Shown here piece after piece: positions 7,560 to 8,435 of a DNA stretch of 64,000 nt. Source of the stretch: Escherichia coli (GTDB taxonomy: Bacteria; Pseudomonadota; Gammaproteobacteria; Enterobacterales; Enterobacteriaceae); the NCBI RefSeq assembly GCF_003334405.1, contig NZ_QOWM01000014.1. One strand, given 5' to 3'. The notes beneath the pieces were generated by a model, which did not search any database, was not told the origin of the DNA, and worked only from the letters and a program-made list of their open reading frames with translations. Each line of letters begins with the position of its first letter. The first letter of the stretch is position 1. A program made the translations under genes and the position numbers.

Positions 7560-7653
7560 AAAATAAATATATTCTGAAAAAATATGCCGACTCTTGCATG
7601 AGAGTGGGCATATTGCCATGCTGACCGGAGACTCATACAAGGATGTAAAATTT

Positions 7654-8034
7654 ATGTTACGTATATTTATCCCAACATCTAACGGTAAGATTTCCAGACG
7701 TCGTTATATATTTTCATTTATTTTAATAAATTTCATTTTTGCCTTTCTTATTATCTTTTTTAACGATGGAGAAGCAGGCTTTCTTGTTATAGTCTCTACC
7801 ATCGTACTCCATTATCTCGTCATCAACATGAATTGCCAGCGACTCCGTGATAGTGGTTTCATCTATATAAAAACTTATGTTTTTGGTACATTAGCAGTAT
7901 ATATCATCTCTATCATCACAATGATAGCCGAAGATTTTGCCTGTTCAGGCAATGGTTCGATGATTTTTTTGATTTGTTATTTTTCCACTTTCAGTATGCT
8001 AATGCTTGCACCTACTGATTCATCAAAACAATAG
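7654..8034 (+). CDS. yigG: small inner-membrane protein YigG (function unknown)
   Basis: AT-rich ORF; start placed at the internal ATG ([18 protein letters not shown]...) to give the 126-aa length I recall for YigG; hydrophobic segments. Confidence 0.7.
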
Positions 8035-8047
8035 TTATGGAGTATTT

Positions 8048-8428
8048 ATGAGTAAGGAATATATGAACGATGGTTCATTAAGTGAAAAATGGAAATACCG
8101 ATTTAATTTTTATGATCAACATGGTTTTCCTGGATTCTGGGGGGCAACACCAGAATATAAAGCAGCATTTAAAGCATTAAAAGTAAGACAACGCTTAACT
8201 ATTCAAATGAATTTCATTGCTTTCTTCTGTTCCTGGATATATTTATTTGTCCTGGGGTTATGGAAAAAAGCAATTATAGTTCTATTACTTGGTATTCTAT
8301 CTCTATTTGTTGGTGCACTAATTGGCGTTAACATTCTGGGAATTGCCGTAGCAGCCTATGTTGCTGTTAACACGAACAAATGGTTCTATGAGAAAGAGGT
8401 AAAAGGGTTAAATACCTGGAGCCTTTGA
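8048..8428 (+). CDS. yigF: small inner-membrane protein YigF (DUF2628-like, function unknown)
   Basis: AT-rich ORF; start at the internal ATG (MSKEYMNDGSLSEKWKYRF...), 126 aa; begins 14 bp after yigG. Confidence 0.75.
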   Translation: MSKEYMNDGSLSEKWKYRFNFYDQHGFPGFWGATPEYKAAFKALKVRQRLTIQMNFIAFFCSWIYLFVLGLWKKAIIVLLLGILSLFVGALIGVNILGIAVAAYVAVNTNKWFYEKEVKGLNTWSL

Positions 8429-8435
8429 ATAACAG

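Follow-up and report, generated by a model that had tools for sequence, protein, structure and literature searches.

The AT-rich islet between the convergent core genes rarD and corA is most probably one allele of a two-gene accessory cassette, an explanation to which, taken as a whole, a probability of roughly 0.75 was assigned. Its yigG-yigF operon would encode a DUF805-like protein with four helices (YigG) and a DUF2628 membrane protein (YigF) that act together, probably as a hetero-oligomeric complex of the inner membrane, as their constant adjacency suggests. The cassette carries no mobility genes, and lineages would acquire, exchange or lose it when its conserved flanks recombine, homologously or illegitimately; the outcome in Escherichia coli would be several very old allelic classes, some of them in tandem arrays with another gene pair, DUF3289-DUF943. 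In K-12, published work indicates that the AT-rich DNA is coated by H-NS and transcriptionally silent, with spurious intragenic promoters. The AT-richness, the foreign signature and the H-NS silencing of yigF-yigG are already published; the architecture of the hotspot, and the finding that the YigG-YigF unit was confined to one site in the loci examined, are modest additions.

The window analysed was the whole stretch of 64,000 nucleotides (64 kb) of E. coli DNA, and all positions refer to it. Positions 7560-8430 showed a GC content of 0.339 vs. 0.524 for the whole window (z = -5.2, with all 871-bp windows of the 64-kb stretch as background: mean 0.524, standard deviation 0.036); 0.08% of the 871-bp windows were equally GC-poor, every one of them overlapping the rarD-corA site. 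In 300-bp windows, GC was 0.32-0.35 across 7500-8400 and 0.50-0.55 on either side. GC3 was 0.31 for yigG (z = -5.6) and 0.29 for yigF (z = -6.0) vs. 0.59 ± 0.05 in the reference set (the 45 ORFs in the window that are 150 aa or longer), and codon typicality was also low (z = -3.3 and -3.5, respectively), so the low GC is not just a by-product of the hydrophobic amino acid content. The yigGF segment was the strongest outlier of the window for both GC and codon usage, and the original prediction of an AT-rich stretch of about 870 bp between rarD and corA was confirmed by both calculations. The region 7540-8475 matched E. coli chromosomes at 100% identity, and the RefSeq annotation placed rarD, yigG, yigF and corA at the same coordinates. 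The features of the locus are the following:

6669-7559, + strand: rarD, the conserved left flank and putative recombination substrate (ORF and RefSeq).
7560-8470, no strand assigned: AT-rich accessory cassette (“module A, K-12 type”), which fills the rarD-corA spacer (GC content, short spacer elsewhere, E. coli census).
7560-7643, + strand: left junction spacer after the rarD stop codon, with a hairpin at about 7581-7615 (found by megablast also in L001-type strains, described below).
7654-8034, + strand: yigG, 126 aa from ATG (ORF, RefSeq and NCBIfam PRK11371).
7805-7954, + strand: “yigG 1.2”, the fragment with the H-NS-repressed intragenic promoter (primer sequences of PMC7229825 mapped onto the sequence).
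8048-8428, + strand: yigF, 126 aa from ATG, DUF2628 (ORF, RefSeq and Pfam).
8435-8459, no strand assigned: GC-rich hairpin between yigF and corA, folding on either strand.
8471-8607, - strand: 3' end of corA, the 137-bp stretch whose second copy is the corA' remnant of strains with two modules in tandem.
8471-9421, - strand: corA, the right flank, convergent with yigF.

Both genes lie in tandem on the + strand, separated by 13 nt, and encode the two small hydrophobic proteins anticipated for the islet, with transmembrane helices. The strong terminator expected after the pair corresponded to the hairpin at 8435-8459: it folded at -17.5 kcal/mol on the + strand (z = -4.1; 0 of 200 shuffles folded as well), with a T-run starting 7 nt past the stem, and at -21 kcal/mol on the - (corA) strand (z about -4). 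It is probably a bidirectional terminator serving the convergent yigF and corA. The region of the left junction spacer also folded stably (-20.5 kcal/mol, z = -3.5), and an Rfam scan of 7000-10000 gave chance-level matches alone (E > 0.5).

Published work documents the H-NS silencing that had been proposed from the sequence. PMC3661553 illustrates the “promoter island” with the yigF-yigG region, records H-NS binding there in every ChIP study compiled (Table 1) and gives the region as foreign by the predictions of two methods; IPOD-HR shows it as a small extended protein-occupancy domain (EPOD) that is silenced; and yigG carries an H-NS-repressed, AT-tract-dependent intragenic promoter (PMC7229825). 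A simple sigma-70 consensus scan of 7300-8700 found 2 sites vs. 4.0 ± 1.9 in shuffled sequences (no enrichment), and the “promoter island” character therefore rests on the published PlatProm analysis.

YigG showed four transmembrane helices by hydropathy and in the AlphaFold2 (AF2) model (pLDDT 87; helices 15-38, 42-66, 72-92 and 100-118), and it passed the NCBIfam YigG equivalog PRK11371 (255.6 bits vs. a cutoff of 217). Pfam DUF805 (PF05656) matched the K-12 protein weakly (E = 0.023); across the YigG family, the same HMM gave E ≤ 1e-3 for 4 of 11 sequences and E ≤ 0.1 for 9 of 11 (best 5.8e-5), and the GRxSRxxY and RLRDxG motifs were kept. Foldseek matches beyond the YigG clade were nearly all DUF805, and weak (E 0.3-4, TM-scores of 0.5-0.7). 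On the basis of these weak matches and the shared motifs, YigG is treated as a remote offshoot of DUF805, that is, as a DUF805-like inner-membrane protein whose membership of the family is not proven. The profile of the YigG family retrieved 29 clusters among 1.84 billion representative proteins, and missed most of DUF805: YigG represents a small enterobacterial offshoot that evolves fast and was found at one locus.

YigF consisted of an N-terminal part of about 50 aa followed by two to three hydrophobic helices (hydropathy and AF2, pLDDT 87), and matched Pfam DUF2628 (PF10947) over residues 17-117 (E = 5.2e-10, positions 9-91 of 93 in the model); PF10947 was also the precomputed annotation of YigF homologues. 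Foldseek against AFDB50 returned 129 matches with E ≤ 1e-3, and nearly all of the best 50 of these were DUF2628 proteins, with full-length TM-scores of 0.73-0.99. A common origin of YigG and YigF as paralogues was rejected, as hhalign of the two profiles showed no relationship. Alignment profiles of both proteins gave nothing meaningful against PDB sequences, and none of the structural and sequence relatives found in the searches had a solved structure or a characterised activity.

The genes yigG and yigF were adjacent in every lineage with a YigF-type cassette, 4-35 nt apart or overlapping by 4 bp, and the pairing of yigG with a DUF2628 gene was constant across lineages with just 40-55% identity. 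This constant pairing and short spacing suggest that YigG and YigF work together in the inner membrane. The phenotypes on record come from Salmonella alone: deletion of yigG reduced attachment to plastic and produce, and a Typhimurium yigG mutant did not grow at the higher chlorine dose, both modest effects with partial complementation (PMC3579871). From these weak data, the most likely role would be a conditionally expressed envelope or surface function.

A rarD gene was found in 276 species, and its neighbourhood was fetched from 80 Enterobacteriaceae species, 79 of them with an informative locus. In 57 of the 79 the rarD-corA gap was just 40-170 bp, with REP-like palindromes or a terminator; these short-gap taxa included Citrobacter, Enterobacter, Klebsiella, Kluyvera, Lelliottia, Raoultella and Buttiauxella. 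Citrobacter branches between Escherichia and Salmonella. In the same set, yigG-yigF occupied the spacer in Escherichia, Superficieibacter electus and Intestinirhabdus alba; it was also found there in Salmonella Typhimurium, Kosakonia cowanii, Enterobacter sp. E76, the genome CP139140 and metagenomic contigs, and Foldseek added Atlantibacter, Pseudescherichia, Phytobacter and Mangrovibacter, bringing the pair to at least 10 genera (Escherichia, Salmonella, Superficieibacter, Intestinirhabdus, Kosakonia, Enterobacter sp. and the four from Foldseek). The pair was not distributed family-wide, in line with the cargo-like nature first proposed for it, and the yigGF segment displayed two marks of xenogeneic DNA: an AT content far above that of the host and a patchy distribution, with the site empty in most species sampled and polymorphic in E. 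coli.

Every YigG-like gene examined sat between rarD and corA, and in all the loci examined it was followed by a DUF2628 (YigF-like) gene, with the exception of one E. coli module (the W type, described below). Protein length, the two YigG motifs and gene order were kept across genera at 40-60% identity. In E. whittamii, yigG-yigF was followed by DUF943 alone. Other genera held unrelated cargo in the same spacer: a fatty-acid-desaturase-like gene; a gene for a secreted endonuclease/exonuclease/phosphatase-like (EEP) protein; and a LacI-type regulator with an enolase-superfamily enzyme. This variety indicates that the rarD-corA spacer is a general insertion hotspot. A literature search on a rarD-corA hotspot found nothing relevant.

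The site was also polymorphic within E. coli, whose 5,426 complete genomes held at least four types of cassette (types that can co-occur in one genome): the K-12-type yigGF cassette in 2,408, a diverged yigGF allele (L090 type; YigG 76% and YigF about 70-71% identical) in 565, the W-type module in 1,431, and the DUF3289-DUF943 pair in 2,627. Tandems of yigGF and DUF3289-DUF943 were present in approximately 299 of the 5,426. The W-type module combined a YigG-family gene with a convergent gene for an unrelated small membrane protein of 99 aa, for which hhalign showed no relationship to YigG; YigF is not an obligatory partner of YigG-family proteins. IS1 insertions, truncations and remnants of the locus were common in the E. 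coli population. DUF3289 is a colicin-M-like protein, toxic in the periplasm, which was neutralised by DUF943 in experiments (PMC11148199, Geller et al. 2024).

The cassette did not resemble a genomic island or integrative element of the classical kind, as recognised by an integrase or transposase gene, a tRNA or att target and flanking direct repeats: the 911-bp segment encoded yigG and yigF alone, no integrase or transposase was present, and in a repeat search neither direct nor inverted repeats longer than chance flanked it. Neither YigG, YigF nor the alternative cargo matched a PHROG. Carriage by a mobile element was considered and rejected, as the matches in phage and plasmid collections were mislabelled chromosomal fragments (recQ-pldA-yigI-rarD...corA-uvrD) or tiny unannotated records.

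Where two modules stood in tandem, second copies of flanking-gene ends lay between them: in E. coli a corA' remnant of 137-147 bp (in L003 and L004 it divides module A from DUF3289-DUF943), and in Enterobacter sp. E76 a corA' of 267 bp fused with a rarD' of 192 bp, both with 97% identity to the respective resident gene. Two sites distinguished the corA copies: K-12 corA had the A and G of the remnant, and the full corA beside DUF943 had T and C. Strains with DUF3289-DUF943 alone (L001 type, without an intact yigGF) kept a 21-codon yigG stump fused just past corA', so this allele derives from the tandem form by deletion. At the left end, the first 84-104 nt after rarD were 96-99% identical to those of L001-type strains, and the W type diverged from K-12 at 7549, within the last codons of rarD. 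Duplicated flank ends and breakpoints inside the flanks point to the import of whole spacer alleles, resolved by recombination in rarD and corA. Judging from the sequences, cassettes thus appear to be exchanged when the flanking genes recombine.

The K-12 and L090 alleles differed by a dS of 0.70 for yigG and 1.25 for yigF vs. 0.11-0.17 for rarD and corA, with a dN/dS of 0.15-0.20. Over several lineages dN/dS was 0.05-0.27 (0.20-0.27 for yigG and 0.05-0.15 for yigF), which shows purifying selection on both genes. For E. coli vs. E. whittamii, the dS of the pair (0.39-0.40) was near that of the flanks (0.27-0.29). The YigF tree conflicted with the CorA tree: the K-12-type, E. whittamii, Salmonella and Superficieibacter sequences (79-89%) grouped together and the L090-type YigF branched outside them, although CorA was 100% identical, a discordance that is evidence of horizontal allele exchange or of very old polymorphism. 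The GC3 of the pair rose with the GC3 of the host (r = 0.77, n = 11). Because the pair occupied one site in all the loci examined, its GC3 tracked that of the host and both genes were under purifying selection, the best description of yigGF is that of an old accessory cassette which lineages have exchanged and lost, and not of a recent import from a distant low-GC source. This refines the horizontal acquisition originally proposed, an interpretation that is otherwise supported.

The agreement of GC3 with the host and the near-flank divergence from E. whittamii also mean that much of the history of yigGF may be vertical descent with repeated loss and not transfer. Carried to its limit, this becomes a very unlikely explanation in which the pair already stood at rarD-corA in an early Enterobacteriaceae ancestor and was lost many times, its AT-richness reflecting weak selection and AT-biased mutation at a poorly expressed, H-NS-bound locus and not a foreign origin. 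A family confined to one site, present in at least 10 genera and following its hosts in GC3 accords with such descent, but the within-species dS (4 to 10 times that of the flanks), the position of the L090-type YigF beside an identical CorA, the tandem modules with duplicated flank ends, which indicate imported whole alleles, and the clean empty sites of 57 species, Citrobacter included, argue for exchange. Still less can be said for reading yigG and yigF as non-functional leftovers, i.e. decaying or spurious ORFs in AT-rich junk DNA. The locus is transcriptionally silent in laboratory K-12 (IPOD-HR), and damaged copies (IS1 insertions, truncations and remnants) abound in the population, but purifying selection in several lineages, the conservation of length, motifs and gene order across genera, the two confident AF2 models and the Pfam match of YigF make this reading, already disfavoured, scarcely credible.

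A different function from the envelope or surface role proposed above was also considered: YigG and YigF, and the W-type alternative, could be an orphan protective module, i.e. immunity- or defence-like membrane proteins acting against a membrane- or envelope-targeting toxin or a phage (the target being a T6SS effector, a colicin, a microcin or a phage) and kept in a “competition island” with DUF3289-DUF943. The same spacer holds this colicin-M-like effector/immunity pair in almost half of the E. coli genomes (2,627 of 5,426), in Salmonella arizonae/diarizonae and in Enterobacter sp. E76, in tandem with yigGF in E76 and in the approximately 299 E. coli genomes mentioned above; the lone DUF943 after yigG-yigF in E. 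whittamii resembles an orphan immunity gene; several deeply diverged alleles in one species are usual under frequency-dependent selection; and the products are small polytopic inner-membrane proteins. However, no toxin gene was linked to yigGF in K-12 or in most carriers: the 64-kb window contained none, and where a DUF3289 gene was nearby in other strains it had its own DUF943. The corA' remnant (in E76 also rarD') splits the modules, which indicates that they arrived as separate alleles and not as one unit. DUF805 and DUF2628 were absent from the searched supplementary tables of T6SS effector-immunity pairs (PMC11148199), neither YigG, YigF, DUF3289 nor DUF943 had a PADLOC match with E ≤ 0.1, and the PHROG scan was negative. 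Selection was purifying and not diversifying, and the unrelated metabolic cargo of other genera speaks for a general hotspot. A protective role of this kind is therefore considered unlikely. Quite unlikely, too, is its broader form, in which the rarD-corA spacer would be a dedicated competition locus of the Enterobacteriaceae, the YigG-family modules (with YigF or the W-type partner) would be membrane protective determinants exchanged alongside the colicin-M-like toxin/immunity module, and the silent yigGF of K-12 would be an orphan protective cassette against a phage or a toxin that targets membrane or envelope.

The old accessory cassette exchanged through its flanks, most likely with a conditional envelope or surface role, is the preferred reading. 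The genes yigG and yigF are among the many K-12 genes without an assigned function, and in other strains they neighbour a validated cell-wall toxin/immunity pair; the comparative picture points experiments to envelope stress, inter-bacterial competition and phage assays with de-repressed alleles. The rarD-corA spacer itself is a clean natural example of cassette exchange via flanking genes without mobility genes.

Several known systems can be compared with the islet. YigG is like DUF805 proteins (e.g. E. coli YhaH and YhaI) in its four transmembrane helices, N-terminal GRxSRxxY and loop RLRDxG, but the HMM score of the K-12 protein and the structural matches are weak and the profile reaches just 29 clusters. 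YigF is like the DUF2628 family in its HMM match and in an AF2 model that superposes on DUF2628 models from Proteobacteria and Actinobacteria, whereas most of the DUF2628 proteins examined outside the Enterobacteriaceae (Pseudomonas, Pantoea) are solitary, without a YigG partner. The DUF3289-DUF943 T6SS effector/immunity pair resembles yigGF in occupying the same spacer, in being AT-rich (GC 0.33), in forming a two-gene, same-strand module and in its ability to stand in tandem with yigGF; unlike yigGF, it is absent from the 64-kb window, it is unrelated in sequence to both YigG and YigF, and its separation from yigGF by flank-gene remnants marks it as a separate allele of the site. With the H-NS-silenced promoter islands and EPODs of K-12, yigGF shares, according to the literature, AT-richness, a predicted foreign origin, H-NS binding, silence and dense promoter-like sites, and as a listed, published example of the class it shows no difference from it. 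Allele replacement without an integrase, through conserved flanks, occurs for example at O-antigen loci. The cargo of the rarD-corA site is very small in comparison (0.9-2.7 kb), and its tandem arrays, with their duplicated flank ends, are peculiar to it; in all else compared, i.e. conserved core flanks, variable cargo, deeply diverged alleles in one species, no mobility genes and breakpoints within the flanking genes, the site is like the O-antigen type of hotspot.

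Roughly half of the E. coli genomes had the DUF3289 (YPO3983)-DUF943 pair in the rarD-corA spacer; it was also found between rarD and corA in Salmonella arizonae, diarizonae and Enterobacter sp. E76. The two genes of this pair have been described as encoding a colicin-M-like toxin and the cognate immunity protein (PMC11148199); no T6SS genes were detected near the spacer copies within the 7.5-8.6-kb stretches examined, and in the spacer the pair is an orphan module. In Escherichia whittamii, an immunity-type DUF943 gene (L005 6867-7364) came after yigG-yigF, without the DUF3289 toxin gene.

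The W-type module, present in 1,431 of the 5,426 complete E. coli genomes, combined a YigG-family gene (128 aa) with a convergent gene for a membrane protein of 99-104 aa, which was unrelated to the YigG-family product and for which a family match was sought and none found; RefSeq annotated just one “hypothetical protein” over this module. The spacer of other genera contained unrelated cargo.

Cargo and associated features at rarD-corA (L, fetched loci with their own coordinates; H, database hits).
L001 4331-5673; L003 4240-5564; L093 5159-6474: DUF3289-DUF943 pair
L004 1917-2813: W-type module of E. coli, YigG-family gene and convergent membrane-protein gene
L054 6005-6991: fatty-acid-desaturase-like protein, 328 aa, normal GC
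L067 5952-6854: secreted endonuclease/exonuclease/phosphatase-like (EEP) protein, 300 aa
L064 6047-7339: AT-rich membrane protein, 430 aa
L096 193-2584: LacI regulator and MR/MLE enzyme
L093 4429-4888; L003 3910-4056; L004 2838-2984: duplicated flank-gene ends
L002 3288-3985; H1, H6, H21, H58: IS1 or ISApl1 insertions at the cassette
L100, L101; H80, H81, H99-H102: mislabelled chromosomal records

The 3' end of corA was duplicated between tandem cargo modules in L093 (Enterobacter sp. E76), L003 (E. coli with yigGF and DUF3289-DUF943) and L004 (E. coli W-type), accompanied in L093 by a duplicated 3' end of rarD. These duplicated ends resemble scars left when whole alleles were imported into the spacer. 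IS1 was repeatedly inserted within or beside the yigG-yigF cassette across different E. coli strains, with one case of ISApl1. In E. coli OkiPb01704, which carries both modules, rarD has an internal stop and its annotation is that of a pseudogene (L003 2110-3000).

Several plasmid- and phage-collection records were considered as mobile copies and rejected: they were chromosomal fragments with recQ-pldA-yigI-rarD...corA-uvrD, among them “plasmids” of 4.9 Mb and “phage” records of 1.6-3.5 kb.

Besides the cassette, only one patch of the window was low in GC (about 24180-25170, minimum 0.41), corresponding to the hemY-aslA intergenic region as placed by offset from an annotated strain. Upstream of corA, annotation of matching genomes located ysgD, a CorL-type leader ORF of 18 codons (window 9573-9629).

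Salmonella and E. coli K-12 YigG have been described as 82% identical (PMC3579871). By tblastn, Salmonella and E. coli shared 57.6% identity for YigG (L100 2929-3387 vs. window 7654-8031) and 84% for YigF; judging from these alignments, the published figure may therefore refer to the neighbouring gene.
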